DNA of 17,150 bases from an uncultured archaeon (GTDB taxonomy: Archaea > Asgardarchaeota > Heimdallarchaeia > Heimdallarchaeales > Heimdallarchaeaceae), in assembly GCA_964534625.1 (NCBI GenBank), contig CAZHRF010000053.1:1-17150 (forward strand), given 5' to 3'. Positions 5,238-17,150 of this stretch are shown piece by piece. The translations under genes were made by a program, and so were the position numbers. Each line of letters opens with the position of its first letter. The first letter of the stretch is position 1. The notes below the pieces were generated by a model. The model made no database searches, was not told the origin of the DNA, and saw only the letters and a program-made list of their open reading frames with translations.

Positions 5238-6401
5238 GTGAACTTAGAATTACTATTGTATGACACAAATGTAATTGCAAAAGGAGTTGCTGCATTAGCC
5301 TTATTTGTTGGTACTATATTCACCGTTTATATAGGGAGAAAACAACAGTCACCTTTTTATCGTAGTTGGTCTGTTTTTCTTTTCGGATATGGCATTTTTG
5401 AAATCGTTAGTATTTATGAATATTTGCTAATTGAATTCCATCTCAATGAAGAATTATATAGTGAGCATCTTTTACTTCAAGCATATCGTTTATTACAATC
5501 CTTCCAAACTCTTTCTATTATATTATTGTTTGGTGCATGTTTACAACAATCAATGATTTTGCCCCCTAAATCCGCCTATGTATTACAAGCCGCCCTTTAT
5601 GGTACGTTTCTTTACTTCATTTGGATACCTCTCGATGAAATGATCAAAAACTTCAATACTCTTAACATCACCCTATTTTCATTAGTTCCTACAGATATTT
5701 TTGGTTTCGGTCTCTCAATTTTAATTTTTGCCAGTGCTTCACTATTAATTCCTATTTATGTCAGATATTCCCAAGCTTACAAATCTAGCAAAGAAAAACG
5801 TTTGCGTATCAAGCGTGATTTTACTTTCATCATGATTTTAATGATCACCACCTTAAGTGGTTTTATGATCGTCAGGAGAGCAATACAAAAAAGTTATCAA
5901 AGTGATGGTTCGTATAGTAATTTTGGATTAATAGAAACACTTGTTACTATGTCCCTTATAATAGTTGTAGCAATTTATCAGAGTCTTTCACTCAGTCATG
6001 GTATAAAAACCATATTATTGGCTGATAGAGAGGGTAATCCTATTGTTGCATATTCTCCATTAAAAAGAGAGCAATTATCTTCTGAAGATAAAATTATTGC
6101 TGTGTCAGGTTTTCTTTCAAGTTTTTTCCATTTCGTTAAAGAGTATATTGCATCTTCTAAAGATGAAACATTTAAAGAAGTTAAAACAACGAACTCTACT
6201 TTTACTTTTTTTGTCCAAGACAAGTTTTTCTTAATAATCCAATCCAAAATTTTGAGTAATATTCTAGAACAAGCAGCTACAGCAACTCTAGAAGAGATAA
6301 ATAACATTCTTGATAGCTTTAATGTAAATGATTTGCCATCAAGAGAACAAGTAAAGACGATTATAGAAAACCTAGATAAATCATTCTATTTATTGGCTTA
6401 A
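5238..6401 (+). CDS. 7-TM membrane protein with C-terminal longin-like domain
   Basis: About 7 hydrophobic helices in aa ~12-250. These are followed by IKTILLADREGNPIVAY...IAVSGFLSSFFHFVKE...FKEVKTTNSTFTFFVQDKFFLIIQ, a beta-beta-alpha-beta-beta-beta-alpha-alpha longin pattern. GTG start. Confidence 0.75.
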   Translation: MNLELLLYDTNVIAKGVAALALFVGTIFTVYIGRKQQSPFYRSWSVFLFGYGIFEIVSIYEYLLIEFHLNEELYSEHLLLQAYRLLQSFQTLSIILLFGACLQQSMILPPKSAYVLQAALYGTFLYFIWIPLDEMIKNFNTLNITLFSLVPTDIFGFGLSILIFASASLLIPIYVRYSQAYKSSKEKRLRIKRDFTFIMILMITTLSGFMIVRRAIQKSYQSDGSYSNFGLIETLVTMSLIIVVAIYQSLSLSHGIKTILLADREGNPIVAYSPLKREQLSSEDKIIAVSGFLSSFFHFVKEYIASSKDETFKEVKTTNSTFTFFVQDKFFLIIQSKILSNILEQAATATLEEINNILDSFNVNDLPSREQVKTIIENLDKSFYLLA

Positions 6402-7477: not shown

Positions 7478-8155
7478 TTAATTTCTTTTCCCTTTCTTTT
7501 TCTTTAATTGGTCTTCAAACATCATAGGATACGTACGAAATGCCAGATTAAGCCGTATATAACCAATAACATTTATAACACTAAAAAACAACACACCAGC
7601 TATACCTATAATACTAAAAAATAATGCCAAATTTTCATGTATCCTTAGAATAATATACGAAATCAAAAATAGAAGATATACTAAAGCCAAACCAAAATGA
7701 CCTAAAGGGAGGAATATTTTAGGTTCTTTGATTATGTAATCTTCAGCCCATAACTCTTCCATTTGGTCAATTAATAGGTAGAAACCATATCCGAGCAAAC
7801 AATATGCCCCTACCATCATTAGAAACGCCAAATAGTATAAAATAATGGATCCTGTTTCTGTAATAGATACAAACGTAATCTGTGCAATCCCTATTAAGAT
7901 CGAACCGCTAGCGATAAAAAGGCCTATTTTTTCACCTAAAGTCCACGGATAGTCGTTGTTAGTTTTAAATCTATATGATGCATATGAAATACCCAAATAT
8001 GCCAATATTAAGGGGATATAAAGAATATGAGATTGATTAAAGTCAATCACGATGGTATTTAATAAAAATCTTCCAAAGATTATCAATAATATTTGAAAAA
8101 TTAGTAGCATAATGCTACCACTTGAGATAAATTTCGCTAATTTGTATCTTTCCAT
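7478..8155 (-). CDS. ~6-TM membrane protein, paralogue 3 of a tandem trio
   Basis: Six hydrophobic segments. Shares motifs with the two upstream genes (LPLGHFG; VIGYIRL). Confidence 0.85.
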   Translation of the reverse strand: MERYKLAKFISSGSIMLLIFQILLIIFGRFLLNTIVIDFNQSHILYIPLILAYLGISYASYRFKTNNDYPWTLGEKIGLFIASGSILIGIAQITFVSITETGSIILYYLAFLMMVGAYCLLGYGFYLLIDQMEELWAEDYIIKEPKIFLPLGHFGLALVYLLFLISYIILRIHENLALFFSIIGIAGVLFFSVINVIGYIRLNLAFRTYPMMFEDQLKKKKGKRN

Positions 8156-8184
8156 TTTTATCGCTCTCTCTTGGCCATATTTGA

Positions 8185-8853
8185 CTATTCATCACCATAA
8201 ATATCTTTTCTATATTCTTCTTCTTCAATTATTTGTTGATACTTCAGTCTGAATATAGAAACCAATCTATAATAACCTAAAATGATAAAAAATCTCGCAA
8301 CCAAATTAAGAAAGAAAGTTATGTTTTCAAGAAGTATTTGCCCATCCCCATGGCTTATTATCCATATAAAAATCATTACGATAGTCAAGATACCATACCC
8401 TATTGAAACAAAAGGATTAACAACAAATGCCATCTCACCTTTTTCATGTAAATCATTTGTTATTTTCCGTATGTATAGATAAGCAATAGTTAGATTTAAG
8501 TAATAGATTACATTAAAACCCAAATTGACTATACTCAAAGGCGGTGTGGCTAAACTAGCGCCTATTTTTGGTATTAAAGACAAGTTTATTTGTATGATTT
8601 CTATTCCTGCACTAATAAAAAGTAGAACTGATACTAGTAACGTAGATTTTCTATGGTGATTTTCTTTTTTAAATTCATTTCTTAATCTCAAAAACGCTAT
8701 TCCCAATAGTACAAATAGCATATCAATAATAATTGCTATAACAATAACAAATACTTCACTAATTGTTTGTCCAACAATTAAAGCAAGATTTGCTATCAGT
8801 AATCCAAAAAAGCTGTAGTATAAATGTTTGGCAAGATCTTCATCTGAAATCAT
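8185..8853 (-). CDS. ~6-TM membrane protein, paralogue 2 of a tandem trio
   Basis: Six hydrophobic segments; motifs VSIGYG and ILGYYRL. Confidence 0.85.
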   Translation of the reverse strand: MISDEDLAKHLYYSFFGLLIANLALIVGQTISEVFVIVIAIIIDMLFVLLGIAFLRLRNEFKKENHHRKSTLLVSVLLFISAGIEIIQINLSLIPKIGASLATPPLSIVNLGFNVIYYLNLTIAYLYIRKITNDLHEKGEMAFVVNPFVSIGYGILTIVMIFIWIISHGDGQILLENITFFLNLVARFFIILGYYRLVSIFRLKYQQIIEEEEYRKDIYGDE

Positions 8854-8864
8854 CTTTTTACCTC

Positions 8865-9830
8865 TTACTTTATATAGGGGTTTTCTTCACCACATTCGGG
8901 ACAATATTCTGCATCATGTTCAAGTTCTAAGCCACATGATATACAAAACATTTTTTTCTTTCTTTTTTCGTCTCTTTCTATTTGTTTTTCAACCAATGTT
9001 TTTGGACTATTTTCGTTTATATAATTCAAATTTACTGATTGAAATGATTGAGGACTTGTTGGGTTTTTTGCAGTCCCATTACTTTCCATATTGGGATAAG
9101 ACAATTGGTTAATCATATTCATAAAATCTTCAGGTACTTTATCCAAAACAAGTATCGCTCTTCTTAACCTTAACATGCCAAGGATAATTAGTACTAAAAA
9201 GCCCACTTCCATGAATTCAGTTATAGTATAGAGGACGGTATACTGATCTCTAGGTTGTAAACTTGCATCTAACATTTTTTCTATAGGTATGATAACTGTA
9301 ATGAGACTATGCACAGATTGTAGTCCAAAACCTATTACTAGTAAGAGCCCCATATTAAATAGATTTCTTCTAATCATCTCAAAAAGTTTAAAGACTTTTT
9401 GAATTATAAAAAAACTAAAAGAAATTCCAAAAAAGAACATAACATTAAGAGCATTAATAATCCTAAACATATTTATAGAATGCTCTACACTATCCATTAA
9501 ATCAAGTAAAAAAAATATTGAATTAAATAGATAGCCAGAACTCGATAACAAAAGCAAAATTGCCCCCGATTTCAGAACGTTACTGACGTCTAGATCACCT
9601 AATGCTATTTCCGTTTGCTCATTTTTATGCTCCAATGAAGATTCTGCCTGACTAAAAATATAGAAGCCATAAGCCATCCAAATTAAAAGAGAAGCATAGA
9701 TTAGATCAGAAAACTTTGAGACATAGAAGTATATTTTATCGAACAATTGTAAAATTGAGATAATCATTACAACAAAAGAATAGATAAGTGTGGACTTCAA
9801 TATCGGTGACCTAACTCTCTCTGAAATCAT
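8865..9830 (-). CDS. ~6-TM membrane protein with C-terminal zinc ribbon, paralogue 1 of a tandem trio
   Basis: Motifs LVIGFG and ILGMLRL, a polar linker, then CISCGLELEHDAEYCPECGEEN. Probable start ATG 9830 (MISER), 23-30 nt downstream of TTTAAATA. Confidence 0.85.
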   Translation of the reverse strand: MISERVRSPILKSTLIYSFVVMIISILQLFDKIYFYVSKFSDLIYASLLIWMAYGFYIFSQAESSLEHKNEQTEIALGDLDVSNVLKSGAILLLLSSSGYLFNSIFFLLDLMDSVEHSINMFRIINALNVMFFFGISFSFFIIQKVFKLFEMIRRNLFNMGLLLVIGFGLQSVHSLITVIIPIEKMLDASLQPRDQYTVLYTITEFMEVGFLVLIILGMLRLRRAILVLDKVPEDFMNMINQLSYPNMESNGTAKNPTSPQSFQSVNLNYINENSPKTLVEKQIERDEKRKKKMFCISCGLELEHDAEYCPECGEENPYIK

Positions 9831-9852
9831 CAATTCAGACTTAGATGAAGCA

Positions 9853-9860
9853 TATTTAAA
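9853..9860 (-). promoter_or_regulatory. Archaeal TATA box (TTTAAATA) for the membrane-protein trio; probably leaderless transcript
   Basis: Minus-strand TTTAAATA 23-30 nt upstream of ATG 9830. Confidence 0.5.
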
Positions 9861-9877
9861 CTTGTGGACTGATGGAT

Positions 9878-10606
9878 TTATAGATGACCTTCTAACCACT
9901 CACGTATTATTTCAAATGCTTGCTTATATCCCGCATCCATGGGAATAACGTGACCTCCTCTTTCTATCCATTTAATCTCTTTATCTTTTATAGGTATGAC
10001 TTCATAAATTTCCTTTGAATAGTTAGGGGGGACTTGAGTATCTTTTTCAGCATGTAAAATTAATGTGGGAACCGCTATAAGAGGAAGTCTTACACGCATT
10101 TCTTCCAATAATTTGTCAAGTTCTAAGACGCTTTTAGTGCTAAACTTGTCATACCCATGATCTCTACATCGTTCCATTGCATCCTCGTCTTCCCAATAAG
10201 AGGTCATAGCTTTATTCCATGGCTTAAGATATTTAATGAAAGGAAATAGTTTAACAAGATAAAAAATTTTATCGGGAATTTTAATTGGTCCAGCCATACC
10301 AATTATACCGTCAAGACCAGGATTATTTACCGCCAGATAGTAAGTAATAGCGGCGCCCATTGACAATCCCACTACAAATGTTTTATCTATACTTTTTAAT
10401 TTGTCTAATTCTTGCTGAGCATGGTCTATCCATTCGACCCAAGTATGCTGCTTGTGATCTTCAGGTGTTGTTCCATGACCAGGTAAAAGAATATTGTTTA
10501 CAATATAACCCTCATCATGCAAAAATTGCTCTAAAGGTTCCATCTCATAATCTGAACCCGTAAAACCATGAATAAGCACTATTCCTATCTTTTCCTTATC
10601 ATTCAT
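9878..10606 (-). CDS. Alpha/beta-hydrolase, carboxylesterase/monoacylglycerol lipase (Est/YvaK-like)
   Basis: IHGFTGS, LPGHGT, nucleophile elbow GLSMG, catalytic Asp in AEKDTQV and His in GGHVI. Confidence 0.93.
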   Translation of the reverse strand: MNDKEKIGIVLIHGFTGSDYEMEPLEQFLHDEGYIVNNILLPGHGTTPEDHKQHTWVEWIDHAQQELDKLKSIDKTFVVGLSMGAAITYYLAVNNPGLDGIIGMAGPIKIPDKIFYLVKLFPFIKYLKPWNKAMTSYWEDEDAMERCRDHGYDKFSTKSVLELDKLLEEMRVRLPLIAVPTLILHAEKDTQVPPNYSKEIYEVIPIKDKEIKWIERGGHVIPMDAGYKQAFEIIREWLEGHL

Positions 10607-12563: not shown

Positions 12564-14042
12564 TTATTTTCTTTTTTTTATATCCTCTACAGTCTTTTTC
12601 TTTGTATTTTCCTTGTAGGAGATCGTATCTTTATCTATATATCCAATTGCTAAAAAGTTGGGCGAATCGCTCATCTCTATTAGTAAGGAGGTAGATTGTC
12701 CCTCACCCAGATACAGTTTGGGAATGTATCTGCTACTGTCAACTCTTCTTATTTGAGTTATAGGAGGCGATTGATACAATTCTTTTCCTATGGTTATCAT
12801 TAATCTATCATTATAATTACCAAATTTTTCAACCTTTTTCCATATATAGATCGTATCTTGGTAATTCTTTTTGAAAATAAGTATTCCCCTAAATATTGTT
12901 TCTATTAGGAGAACAATAATTAATAGATGCAAGAAATATATGAATACATCGAATGTATATGTTAGAAGTAAAATTACACCAAATAAAATTAAGAAATAAG
13001 AAAATAGTATATAAATGAAAGGCATATAGTCTGGTACCTCTTTTTTTGAAATATTAGGAAATACCGGAAAGTTTTTTTCTTTTTCGTATTGTTTTTTTCT
13101 ATTATGCTGAATGGAAAGGAAAGATCCTTTTTCTTTAAACATCGGACATATAAATGACAAAATGGTATAAAATCGAATATTCAATTGGTATTGATTTAAC
13201 ATAGTTTGTTCGTTTTGTATTTGGCATTTTGATTGAAAAAAACTAAAGTTTGATGTTTTTGCTGTTTTCTTCCAGTTTTTTAAAGGACCATAATTTTCCA
13301 TATATTTAAGTTCATTATTGAGTAAATATGCGGTTGAGCAGACTATTAATGGTATGAAATAAAGGATTAAGTTCATTATTGGTAATGGATTTAGGGAAAC
13401 TAGAACTGATTCTTTACTTTTCTCCGACAAATAGATATGAGAGATAAAGGTATAAATCCCAAAGATAATAAACATTAGAAAACATAAAAAGTATCCGCTT
13501 TTTCTTGATTTGGTATCGAGATGGGCAGATTCTCCTTCTTTTATAATTGATCTCTGAAAGAAAAATTCATACATTCTTTTTGATTCTTTAATTGTCTCTA
13601 TAGTTAAAGCAGTCATAAAAAGAGGAAACAAAAAGTAATAACATAACCACACTGCTGGTGAAACTCTGGAAAGATAAATCATCCCTGACGTACTTAATAA
13701 AGATCCTATAAACAATGCTTTCAGTTTAAAACTCACATATAACCATATAATCAGAATATTATGAAAAGAAACGCGTGGATTGGCGATTGGAATAGAAAGA
13801 GCATCAGTAAGTAATTTTTCACTTATTAATAAATCGCTGTTATAGTTTTTGATAAAATATTCTGCTGACATATGTCCTTTTTTCACATTTGTGAAATCAA
13901 TTACATTTTCTCTTTGTGTATGCGAAACATTATTTTCATAGAAATCTTGATAATATTCTACTTCACCTTTTTTTACAAAAGTTTCCGATAGTACCCTAAC
14001 TCTTTTTCTTTCCTTCTCAGGCTTGAAGTGTTTTTTATTCAT
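12564..14042 (-). CDS. Hypothetical polytopic membrane protein with a C-terminal soluble beta-rich (possibly PH-like) segment
   Basis: 492-aa ORF with about 7-8 hydrophobic segments. Starts 5 nt after the helicase stop. Confidence 0.75.
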   Translation of the reverse strand: MNKKHFKPEKERKRVRVLSETFVKKGEVEYYQDFYENNVSHTQRENVIDFTNVKKGHMSAEYFIKNYNSDLLISEKLLTDALSIPIANPRVSFHNILIIWLYVSFKLKALFIGSLLSTSGMIYLSRVSPAVWLCYYFLFPLFMTALTIETIKESKRMYEFFFQRSIIKEGESAHLDTKSRKSGYFLCFLMFIIFGIYTFISHIYLSEKSKESVLVSLNPLPIMNLILYFIPLIVCSTAYLLNNELKYMENYGPLKNWKKTAKTSNFSFFQSKCQIQNEQTMLNQYQLNIRFYTILSFICPMFKEKGSFLSIQHNRKKQYEKEKNFPVFPNISKKEVPDYMPFIYILFSYFLILFGVILLLTYTFDVFIYFLHLLIIVLLIETIFRGILIFKKNYQDTIYIWKKVEKFGNYNDRLMITIGKELYQSPPITQIRRVDSSRYIPKLYLGEGQSTSLLIEMSDSPNFLAIGYIDKDTISYKENTKKKTVEDIKKRK

Positions 14043-14047
14043 TTATC

Positions 14048-17000
14048 TCACATCCAGATGATTTTTTTGTTGACTTTTACTTTTTTCTTCTGCTCTCTAT
14101 GAACAGATTCAAGATATGCTCTGTCAAGTAAAGTTCCAACAGAAACCAATCTTGACCAAATAACTTGGGCTATTTTTGCTTCATCAGCTTTTAGTCCATA
14201 AAGTCCAATCCAGTAAAATCTAAGGGGATTTTCTATTTTTTCTATTTTTTTGATTGTTAATAGAGGTAATGCATATCCAAATTGGTTTAAATGGAAAAGA
14301 TTCTGAATTGCTTCCACTAGTATTTCATCAGTGGAATGAGATGAAAGTCTAAAATAGTTACCTGAACGCTTTTTTATAGAAATATTTTGAAATTCCTTAG
14401 CTATAAATGATATATTGGTGCTTAATTTTCCTGTTTTCTTTAAATATTCATCAAGTATAGAATACATTTCAAAGACATTTTTAACAATATCTTCTATTTT
14501 TTCATTTTTATGCAGTAAAATATCTTTTCGCTTATATTGATAGAAATTCTCCTCTATAATTTTTCTATCAAAGAGTTGAAAATACTTATCTTTAATCCTA
14601 GTTAATTTTAACATTGGCTTATCGAAAGCTACATCAAAAGATAAGGCTTCTAAATTTTCATAGTCTTGGTCGATTTTCCACAGATCTAAGTATCGATGAC
14701 GTTCATGCGCTTTTTTCTTCATCTCTTCATTGAAGAATCTAATACGATAGCATAATTCAATAATATCTTCTTGCATTGACGGATAAGCGTGTCCTATACC
14801 TTTTTCAATTACACCATCTTCGGATAATCCATAGAAATGCTTGTGTTTTCTTACTATGTTGAAAAAGTCACTTAGTCCATAAGGGATTTCAGGATCAACT
14901 ACTGCCACATCCCAAATATTGCTCAATTTAGTATAATTTTTCTCATCAATCCTATAAGCTCTTCCTTTAGTTTGAATAACAGTTTGATAGGCTGATACTG
15001 AAGTAAGATCAACTAAGGTATTGAGTTTAATAGAATCCCATCCTTCGCCTAGAATCGATCTTGGTCCGATTAGACAACGGATTAATGATTTCTCAAACAG
15101 ATATGTAAAAAAAAGCGTAAAAATACCTGTTTTCCAATCTGAACCTGATCCTTCTATCAAACACAATCCATTTTGCAATTTTTTATCCTTTAATTTGAAA
15201 TCCAATCTTAATTTTTTACTCCAATTCAAAGCTTCCCTTTCAACAAAAGCAGTTATATCTTGATCAGCAATAATTACATCTTGAAGTAATAATACTGCTT
15301 CTAAATCTGCCAGTTGTCTATCATTACATATTTTCTCTATAAGTAAGGTTAAATGTGGTGATGAAGCATTATCAAATACAACTACAGCATGTAAATCGTT
15401 GTTCATCTTTTCTTTTTCAAGTTTAAGTATGTCTAATACAGCTTCAATCCTATTTTTGCTTTCATGCAAAACTTCAAAAACGAATTTCTTTGCAGATAAT
15501 AACTCGTCAAAGCTGGTTATATTTTGATAAAAAAAGTCTAAAGATTTAATAAAAGAATCGTTTTCTGTTACTCCTTCTTTCCTATTTTTAGAGAGATATA
15601 TACTATAATACAAATATAATAATTTGAACTTTTCAATAACTGAAAATGATGATTCATTTTCCTTAGTTTTCTTTTCTTTTTCTTTTTCTTTTTCTTTCTT
15701 TTTGTCATTCTTTGATTCATCAATCACTTTGTGTTTTGCTTCTTCTAATATCGAAAAATGATCTAGTAGAATATTATTGTCTAATGCTAGATCTTGTAAC
15801 CATCTCTTTGGAGTCTTTAATTTTTTTAGTCTTTTTCTTTCAAACAGTTGGTCTAATTTGTTCCAATATGGTTTTAGTTTTTTTAGTTCTTCTTCTGAAG
15901 GAGTTGTAAGATAAATTAAGTCTTGATAGGGAGCTAAATTTCTTTGTTTGACTGCAGCAGGTGTGGGTATTTCAACATTCACTTTCCCAAATAACAATTT
16001 GTAAATATGCGTTTCATATGCTTCCTCTTCCTCATCTAATAAGGGAGGAGTTGCAGTTAGACCAATAACGAAAGGATAATTAAATTCCTCAATTAAGTAA
16101 TTAACAATATGTGCCCATACAGCAGTTAAGTGATGACATTCATCTAGAATTATCACTCCTATACCTTTTTCTTTAATTTTTTCAATTATATCTACTGTGT
16201 TGGGATGCAAGATATCTTTAATAGATAAATCTGTGATGTCTTTGTTGAAAATTGTTTTTTTTCTTATTTTTGATATATATGGCTGAATTTCAGCTTGATA
16301 CTCCCTTGATTCTCTAAAAACTTCTTTGAACTTCTCAATTGAAGTGATAGCCATATCGGGAAATAGAGTTTTACTTTTTTCTTTCCAATGCTCTAAATAG
16401 TCTTTGAACCACATAGCCTCTGCATATTTAAATAACAATTCTTCATCCCTATTATAGACAGAAAAACGGTGATATGTCATCGAAATAATTGGTGCATGTG
16501 AATATGAATTACTTGTTCCAAGCATGGTATTAATGACGGGGGAATCGTCTGGTAAAAAAAGAGAAATTTTATCAATCCATTGCTGTTGAGTTGAATAATT
16601 GGGAGATAAAACAAGAGCGTTTGTTTGGAGTCTTTTGATTAATTCTAAACCAATAATTGTTTTACCAGAACCGGGTGGAGAAACAACATAAAATTTTCTC
16701 TCAAGTTTATCACGAACATCCTCGAATTTTTCAAGAATAAGTTTTTGAGATTGCCAAAAATCTCGTTGAAACGCCATTTGTGTTACTGGATTTTTATCAA
16801 ATTTTCCATCTCGATCTAGATCAAATCGTATATCTCGATAACTGGATATTGGTTGTTCTATATAAGAATCATATGGTAATTCTTTTTTACAATAGGGGCA
16901 GTTTGAATTGATCGTATACCAGTTTTTTAGATGATTTTGATGAAAAACAGTTCGACAATTTTTGCAAATTTTAACGTTTGACTCAATATCAAATGGACTA

Positions 17001-17119
17001 AAACAAATCCCACACTTAATAACTTCTGCTCTACAATTTGAACAAAATTTTTCGGAAATACTTATACAGTGAGAACAGTTCAAACAGATATAATCCATTT
17101 TTCTCATTTTATTAAGCAT
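14048..17119 (-). CDS. SF2 DExH helicase (ResIII-like) with N-terminal zinc ribbon and RING-type zinc finger
   Basis: Q motif FQRDFWQSQ, Walker A SPPGSGKT, DECHH, GLTATPP, ILGEGWD and QTKGRAYR. N-terminal CLNC..CSNC, then CGIC-x12-CKNC-x4-H-x2-H-x3-W-x6-CPYC. True start may be ATG 17107 or 17098. Confidence 0.92.
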   Translation of the reverse strand: MLNKMRKMDYICLNCSHCISISEKFCSNCRAEVIKCGICFSPFDIESNVKICKNCRTVFHQNHLKNWYTINSNCPYCKKELPYDSYIEQPISSYRDIRFDLDRDGKFDKNPVTQMAFQRDFWQSQKLILEKFEDVRDKLERKFYVVSPPGSGKTIIGLELIKRLQTNALVLSPNYSTQQQWIDKISLFLPDDSPVINTMLGTSNSYSHAPIISMTYHRFSVYNRDEELLFKYAEAMWFKDYLEHWKEKSKTLFPDMAITSIEKFKEVFRESREYQAEIQPYISKIRKKTIFNKDITDLSIKDILHPNTVDIIEKIKEKGIGVIILDECHHLTAVWAHIVNYLIEEFNYPFVIGLTATPPLLDEEEEAYETHIYKLLFGKVNVEIPTPAAVKQRNLAPYQDLIYLTTPSEEELKKLKPYWNKLDQLFERKRLKKLKTPKRWLQDLALDNNILLDHFSILEEAKHKVIDESKNDKKKEKEKEKEKKTKENESSFSVIEKFKLLYLYYSIYLSKNRKEGVTENDSFIKSLDFFYQNITSFDELLSAKKFVFEVLHESKNRIEAVLDILKLEKEKMNNDLHAVVVFDNASSPHLTLLIEKICNDRQLADLEAVLLLQDVIIADQDITAFVEREALNWSKKLRLDFKLKDKKLQNGLCLIEGSGSDWKTGIFTLFFTYLFEKSLIRCLIGPRSILGEGWDSIKLNTLVDLTSVSAYQTVIQTKGRAYRIDEKNYTKLSNIWDVAVVDPEIPYGLSDFFNIVRKHKHFYGLSEDGVIEKGIGHAYPSMQEDIIELCYRIRFFNEEMKKKAHERHRYLDLWKIDQDYENLEALSFDVAFDKPMLKLTRIKDKYFQLFDRKIIEENFYQYKRKDILLHKNEKIEDIVKNVFEMYSILDEYLKKTGKLSTNISFIAKEFQNISIKKRSGNYFRLSSHSTDEILVEAIQNLFHLNQFGYALPLLTIKKIEKIENPLRFYWIGLYGLKADEAKIAQVIWSRLVSVGTLLDRAYLESVHREQKKKVKVNKKIIWM
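15667..15702. repeat. Imperfect (TTTTTC)n microsatellite encoding a KE-rich tract in the helicase
   Basis: TTTTC TTTTC TTTTTC TTTTTC TTTTTC TTTC, which translates on the minus strand as KKKEKEKEKEKK. Confidence 0.6.
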
Positions 17120-17126
17120 TTGGTAC

Positions 17127-17134
17127 TATATAAA
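17127..17134 (-). promoter_or_regulatory. Archaeal BRE/TATA (AGAAAC TTTATATA) for the helicase-membrane protein unit
   Basis: Minus-strand TTTATATA preceded by a purine-rich element. The spacing fits a start at ATG 17107 or 17098 better than 17119. Confidence 0.5.
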
Positions 17135-17150
17135 GTTTCTAAAACTAAAA

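Follow-up and report, generated by a model that had tools for sequence, protein, structure and literature searches.

What is a RING finger doing at the front of a helicase in an archaeon? The question is raised by a gene on contig CAZHRF010000053.1 of an uncultured Heimdallarchaeaceae archaeon (assembly GCA_964534625.1), whose 17,150 nucleotides are the stretch of DNA analysed here and are called the window below. The gene encodes a superfamily 2 (SF2) helicase preceded by a zinc ribbon and a RING, and a first-pass annotation, made from the letters of the sequence, had put it forward as a candidate ubiquitin ligase-helicase. We find that the fusion is real and that both of its halves have the features of working domains. 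Whether they make up a motor-ligase fusion, in which the RING would ubiquitylate what the motor is positioned on or beside, appears to us evenly balanced.

The open reading frame (ORF) is complete at its N-terminus despite the nearby contig end, since an in-frame TAG stands three codons 5' of the annotated start; the contig itself (17150 bp) ends 31 nucleotides beyond that start. Comparison with orthologues suggests that the true start may be M8, at 17098. The junction between the RING and the helicase lies inside single contigs in three runs of what is probably the source study, and in a second study one contig of a strain about 90% alike spans 13547-17150; a junction found within single contigs of separate runs and studies is not an assembly chimera. 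Two complete single-contig genomes (G005 and G006) encode the identical ribbon/RING/helicase architecture, and together with the junction-spanning contigs they exclude both a chimera and an ORF artefact. The nearest relative, a protein of Ca. Heimdallarchaeum endolithica, is 45% identical over 99% of the length. Pfam recognizes zf-RING_2 (PF13639) at residues 35-78 as well as ResIII (E 1.9e-17) and DEAD, and judging by the zf-RING_2 and ResIII matches the presence of RING and helicase motifs in one ORF is beyond chance.

The N-terminal part contains every residue that the first-pass annotation had named there: the four cysteines of the ribbon, the RING set C36, C39, C52, C55, H60, H63, C74 and C77, the tryptophan W67 and the CPxC motif. 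The zf-RING_2 profile scores 29.8 bits, above its cut-off of 27.3 (35.1 bits when the domain is taken by itself), and matches 15 of the 15 fusion proteins collected in this work. By sequence, the eight zinc ligands of the RING follow the cross-brace order, and the sequence matches of the N-terminal domain in the PDB are Arkadia, RNF24, RNF165 and listerin. A model built on the N-termini of the 15 fusions, with a predicted local distance difference test score (pLDDT) of 89.9, finds nearly nothing but RING and U-box domains among its top 50 structural matches, with Z-scores of 5.0-7.5 and, at best, a root-mean-square deviation (rmsd) of 3.0 over 68 aligned residues; for a domain of 50 residues such modest scores are to be expected, and the model is consistent with the sequence evidence. 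It is worth pointing out that this is not a canonical RING-H2 (C3H2C3), the centre of which reads C-x(1-3)-H-x(2-3)-H-x2-C. Here the spacing is CxxC...CxxC-x4-H-xx-H...CPxC (C4H2C2), with C-x2-C-x4-H-x2-H at the centre, and this is the usual RING type of the host genome. The central spacing resembles that of a PHD finger, but the position of the Trp, in the helix after ligand 6, the profile and the fold all point to a RING, and no PHD profile matches the helicase protein. The identification of the domain as a RING, rather than some other zinc finger, was therefore borne out in both sequence and fold.

Several features speak for a ligase. I38, W67 and K78 align with I30, W58 and R69 of srfp, a ubiquitin ligase (E3) of Candidatus Caldiarchaeum subterraneum, in which substitution of these residues abolishes or impairs ubiquitylation in vitro (PMC5654768). 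Across the 15 fusions the Trp is invariant, position 38 is I, L or V in all, and position 78 is K or R in 13; the predicted surface for the ubiquitin-conjugating enzyme (E2), made of I38, W67, P75 and K78, is a conserved one. Between two Heimdallarchaeum genomes the RING has a nonsynonymous divergence (dN) of 0.079 and a synonymous divergence (dS) of 1.15, a constraint similar to that on the RecA lobes of the motor, and both the RING and the RecA lobes are under purifying selection. From its sequence and its model, the RING probably binds an E2 and is active as an E3.

The case of a genome with no E2 or ubiquitin, which would have spoken against a ligase, does not arise, as the host encodes ubiquitin, a ubiquitin-activating enzyme (E1), two E2s with a catalytic cysteine and a JAMM protease. 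On contig C36 (4678-12194; L004, L005), ubiquitin ending in GG, an E1, a UEV-domain protein and ESCRT-like/Vps4-like genes are clustered; a comparable ubiquitin/ESCRT gene cluster has reportedly been described for Asgard archaea before. A second ubiquitin cluster (C72:869-6704; L002, L006) combines an E1, a ubiquitin-like protein with an acidic N-terminal extension and a C-terminal TAG instead of GG, a RING membrane protein, the JAMM protease and an E2 with an insertion preceding its catalytic Cys. The third locus, on contig C1, holds a canonical E2 and is conserved in 46 of the 47 genomes of the order. A host E2 carries the matching loop motifs YPF and TPA. When the RING was co-folded with the C1 E2, the score was 0.35 against 0.12 for the best control, with runs agreeing in at least 91% of contacts and a partner pLDDT of at least 87. 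In the calibration, the mark was reached by 58 of 80 solved and 2 of 110 mismatched pairs, and the passes scoring 0.60 or less were 7 of the 80 solved pairs plus both of the mismatched ones. As RING-E2 is a textbook pair, the score may also reflect likeness to solved structures. The co-fold is weak support, and it barely shifts the odds.

The rest of the protein was described at first pass as a complete helicase, and PPGSGKT (148), DECHH (326), TATPP, PTPAAV, APYQD, GEGWD (691), QTKGRAYR (716) and RKH (757) are all found. Two RecA lobes with motifs I, II (DExH), III, V and VI place it in SF2. With motifs I, II, III and V intact in 14 of 14 full-length fusions, the motor is, to go by its sequence, very probably an active ATPase. 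The first lobe includes a helical insert at ~218-316. The second insertion, at 409-552, appears to be placed as in Hef and RIG-I, and is 22% identical to its orthologue versus 55-63% for the RecA lobes; within it, a Lys/Glu-rich low-complexity stretch (window 15661-15711, residues ~470-487) is missing from the orthologues, and public contigs break there. Model confidence is low in the linker (residues 96-109) that connects the RING to the motor. The C-terminal region (815-1023) gave no usable Atlas match and is without the transmembrane (TM) hairpin seen in many RING-less relatives.

Structurally the motor is closest to XPB (Z 18.8, rmsd 4.2, 355 aligned residues; profile E 5e-17), which VIA-align ranks first, with Hef, UvsW, RadD and the Snf2 proteins lower. 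While XPB/Rad25/Ssl2, known from TFIIH and from the archaeal XPB-Bax1 pair, is thus the best match of the motor core in both sequence and structure, the protein is not an XPB orthologue: it scores 38.2 bits against the cut-off of 610 for NCBIfam NF045503, and it has large extra insertions and the N-terminal RING, with no Bax1-like nuclease seen adjacent. A Snf2-family motor was likewise rejected, with no SNF2 Pfam match and the XPB Z-score above the Z of ~15 for Snf2. No nuclease domain was found in the helicase protein. The Res subunit of Type III restriction was discarded as well, the ResIII match being to the RecA1 lobe only and no nuclease or methyltransferase family matching the protein or the scanned neighbours. 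From what is known of XPB, Hef and RIG-I-like motors, the motor is most likely a double-stranded nucleic-acid translocase. The coordinates of all these parts are collected in the table.

Table. Features of the fusion gene and the gene behind it, in window coordinates (approximate limits in residues of the protein).
Feature	Position	Strand	Remarks
Zn-ribbon/RING/SF2 helicase gene	14048..17119	(-)	1023 aa, single uninterrupted ORF
Zn ribbon	17033..17086	(-)	C12/C15/C26/C29; DZR E 1.2e-4
RING finger, residues 36-78	16886..17014	(-)	C4H2C2; I38, W67, P75, K78
RecA1 lobe, ~113-405	15905..16783	(-)	Q motif, Walker A 16658-16678, DECHH 16130-16144, TATPP
Variable helical insertion, ~409-552	15464..15895	(-)	after first RecA2 strand; Lys/Glu-rich low-confidence stretch
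RecA2 lobe, ~553-815	14675..15463	(-)	GEGWD, QTKGRAYR, RKH
C-terminal region, ~816-1023	14051..14674	(-)	no recognised family
492-aa membrane protein gene	12564..14042	(-)	begins 5 nt after helicase stop; six predicted helices; no known family

Where did such a protein come from? Its motor belongs to a large family (519 representatives at E 1e-30 or better) of uncharacterised helicases of 900-1050 residues, annotated as ResIII/DEAD in bacteria and some archaea (e.g. P0038, P0098, P0019). It shares with them matches with E down to 1e-101, the motifs PTPAVV..LAPYQDL, GEGWD and RKH, and a C-terminal W motif. Outside Heimdallarchaeia the named members come almost entirely from bacteria, with one Altiarchaeota protein in addition. 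A RING profile run over about 275 collected relatives picked out 15 fusions, all Heimdall-type, and none among the other ~260; relatives outside Heimdallarchaeia are all without the RING, in agreement with the first-pass statement that this helicase subtype occurs in bacteria without one. Six RING-less relatives (P0014, P0025, P0031, P0073, P0123 and P0233) carry one to three N-terminal zinc ribbons only, so the N-terminus of the helicase tolerates added zinc modules; of these, P0025 and P0123 were placed in the tree, where they group neither together nor with the RING clade. One family member, in Lentisphaerae, is encoded 31 nucleotides downstream of a same-strand gene for a reverse transcriptase (L082:5887-9781).

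The fusions occur in 8 of 83 Heimdallarchaeia genomes, from three families and two orders, and in metagenomes, and were not found in 25 genomes of one genus in the host family; this patchy distribution argues against a core role. Across the three families and two orders the RING sits at one and the same place, about equally far from Walker A, and the zinc ribbon is missing from 2 of the 15. In the tree, RING-less copies from other Asgard families form a separate long-branched clade, and the fusions split into two fully supported subclades. Subclade A, consisting of the studied protein, the Heimdallarchaeum proteins and P0004, keeps all eight zinc ligands. Subclade B, with 11 proteins from families f4 and f6 and from metagenomes, usually has seven, together with the Trp in all and the basic linchpin in most. 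The two are joined at 88/96 in the careful tree, which is unrooted and in which both branches are long; a helicase tree with two origins is not rejected (p-AU 0.19), and a tree of the RING only, with just 48 columns, is uninformative, a single clade not being rejected (p-AU 0.52). We lean towards one fusion origin followed by many losses. A transfer of the helicase from bacteria may be read from its distribution, the tree being unrooted. None of the known eukaryotic RING-helicases descends from the Heimdall RING-helicase.

Directly behind the helicase gene lies the gene of a membrane protein. Homologues of this partner are found downstream of the helicase in every subclade A locus with downstream DNA visible, and the gene is present in exactly the 3 of 83 genomes that have a subclade A helicase; subclade B is without it. 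The partner has no usable Atlas match (best 0.80), and no relationship between it and the TM hairpin region of RING-less family members was detected. A TM-like segment after the core is present in 128 of 219 RING-less relatives (58%) but 0 of 14 RING fusions, a contrast suggesting a membrane anchor provided in trans by the partner. Membrane attachment is not essential to the fusion, since subclade B has neither the partner nor the TM segment. A conserved membrane partner, a subclade with a degenerate zinc site and a RING that is a promiscuous module, as described below, all go beyond what the first-pass annotation had seen.

The partner also evolves fast: between the two Heimdallarchaeum genomes it has 62% identity and a dN of 0.23, compared with 94-96% identity for the adjacent housekeeping genes. 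This speed is one of the points that would fit an antiviral or anti-plasmid sensor-effector, with the motor as detector of foreign nucleic acid, the RING as maker of ubiquitin chains and the membrane protein as effector, on the lines of RIG-I and its RING ligases or of ZNFX1. This reading overlaps with that of a motor-ligase fusion. The patchy occurrence of the fusion, down to its absence from the 25 genomes of the same-family genus, fits as well, as do the RIG-I/MDA5 matches found by Foldseek and the precedent of ZNFX1 (10.1101/2025.09.05.674436). We nevertheless regard a defence role of this kind as rather improbable. The inspected neighbourhoods hold no defence genes apart from one weak MazE/PIN pair; their other genes are metabolic or housekeeping ones and vary from lineage to lineage, and the locus is syntenic among metabolic genes in the two Heimdallarchaeum genomes. 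Subclade B does without the membrane partner, and it is XPB that VIA-align ranks first. A known defence system, Pbe, was rejected: PADLOC's one match, with the helicase portion of PbeA, is partial (residues 267-471, E 1.2e-10), and the partner has none.

The motor-ligase reading can be put as a chain of steps. A helicase of the XPB/ResIII-like family would have gained the host's standard ribbon+RING cassette at its N-terminus, inside Heimdallarchaeia. The motor would bind double-stranded nucleic acid, most likely DNA, and translocate on it with ATP, like XPB or Hef, while the RING would recruit a ubiquitin-loaded host E2 through I38/W67/P75/K78 and act as an E3. Its targets might be the helicase itself, the membrane partner or some protein lodged on the nucleic acid, to be removed by the proteasome or by ESCRT. 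The six-helix partner would hold the enzyme at the membrane, replacing the cis TM hairpin of many RING-less relatives. That the output of the ligase is tied to nucleic-acid engagement we hold slightly short of an even balance, and the fullest version, a nucleic-acid-activated ligase in which an XPB-like translocase has its RING switched on by DNA or RNA engagement and is tethered to the membrane by a dedicated partner, is a tentative proposal.

A number of findings weigh against the motor-ligase reading. The same RING type is present on 11 proteins of the host genome with unrelated architectures, so the fusion alone is no proof that its parts are functionally coupled, and RING fusions are a frequent sight in Heimdallarchaeia, so that each one taken singly carries less weight. 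About 260 relatives work without a RING, so the motor can dispense with it. Foldseek puts the RIG-I/MDA5/Dicer helicases about level with XPB, and the substrate of the motor may be either DNA or RNA. The sixth zinc ligand is lost in 8 of the 11 subclade B proteins, with E, R, Q, A or N in its place. Finally, the structural matches of the RING model include RAG1, Slx1 and Prp19, whose RING or U-box domains are best known for roles other than that of an E3.

The lost ligand bears on the possibility that ribbon and RING form a non-catalytic zinc module, for binding protein or nucleic acid or for oligomerisation, with which the non-canonical ligand spacing and the low RING-E2 co-fold score would also agree. 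However, proteins that have lost the ligand still conserve the Trp on the surface, the Ile/Leu and the basic linchpin, the studied copy has all eight ligands, and srfp likewise has shifted ligands and is active all the same (PMC5654768); we think such a module unlikely.

The 11 RINGs bear on a different possibility, that of an active E3 uncoupled from the motor cycle and serving as a regulatory add-on for the turnover or sorting of the helicase or its membrane partner. Ten of them are C-terminal or on small proteins, and the carriers include Dna2, winged-helix/PCI repeat and membrane proteins; the ribbon+RING cassette recurs on at least four other host proteins, and of the 11 RINGs only that of the helicase heads a large protein. 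The low-confidence linker and the large majority of RING-less relatives are also what an uncoupled ligase would lead one to expect. On the other hand, neither the preserved position of the RING relative to Walker A across three families and two orders, nor purifying selection on the RING as strong as that on the RecA lobes, is easily squared with a loose attachment, and an uncoupled E3 appears to us doubtful, although less so than a non-catalytic module.

Two of the other carriers are worth describing. A complete Dna2 nuclease-superfamily 1 (SF1) helicase of 994 residues ends in a C4H2C2 RING (L116:97-3078 (-), which is G000 C5:67796-70777), and two motor-RING fusions in one genome make the motor-RING theme more interesting. 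A 687-residue protein has PCI/winged-helix repeats and a C-terminal ribbon+RING (L115:50-2110 (-), which is G000 C16:28349-30409). Most genomes of the order have RING-bearing ORFs of ~690 residues that may be orthologous to it; the 687-residue protein is possibly a conserved scaffold-type E3.

How does the motor-ligase candidate compare with known systems? Its RING shares the fold and the Ile, Trp, Pro and basic linchpin with srfp and with RING-H2 E3s such as Arkadia/RNF111, RNF165, RNF4 and listerin, but this putative E3 differs from them in its C4H2C2 spacing, in the preceding zinc ribbon and in the 900-residue motor fused to it. Rad5, HLTF, SHPRH and Rad16 also join a RING to an SF2 motor in one chain, and in Rad5 the RING is inserted within the motor. 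This shared arrangement, as documented for HLTF (PMC4666394), is a matter of convergence and not of orthology: the Heimdall protein has an XPB/ResIII-like motor and an N-terminal RING, and no HIRAN domain was detected in it. The independence from Rad5/Rad16/SHPRH that had been inferred for the fusion stands, because its motor is of another type than Snf2. The notion that a motor on nucleic acid controls the transfer of ubiquitin is met again in RIG-I/MDA5, with RING ligases in trans, and in UPF1. ZNFX1, an SF1 RNA helicase with RING-like E3 activity (10.1101/2025.09.05.674436), shares this notion too. From all of these the Heimdall protein differs in helicase family and domain order, and it shows no sign of an immune role.

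The fusion was not described in the literature searched, which included the texts of PMC11354881, PMC13700489 and PMC13734099 and had most subscription papers outside its reach. The archaeal ubiquitin E3s studied to date are small stand-alone RING proteins whose natural substrates are not known (PMC5654768), and where a RING is joined to a motor, the motor indicates where it is likely to act. The protein clearly exemplifies how a signalling domain of eukaryotic type was grafted onto a family of helicases with mostly bacterial named members. Ubiquitin, E1, two E2s and the RING-helicase can all be reconstituted from one genome, which makes it directly testable whether archaeal relatives of eukaryotes coupled ubiquitin transfer to nucleic-acid processing. 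If the protein is indeed a nucleic-acid-activated ligase, then, with the RING-tailed Dna2, Heimdallarchaeia would have wired ubiquitin transfer to motors twice, independently of Rad5/HLTF and ZNFX1.

A few minor observations concern the locus at large. A scan of the locus for promoters and terminators, by a method ill-suited to archaea, stayed at chance level, and a search for related loci using the helicase protein alone gave no match. Elsewhere in the window, a 63-residue acidic ORF overlaps a radical SAM/SPASM gene (35-1652), and multi-pass membrane proteins without a Pfam family are encoded at 5238-6401 and 7478-9899, the last of them with a C-terminal zinc ribbon.

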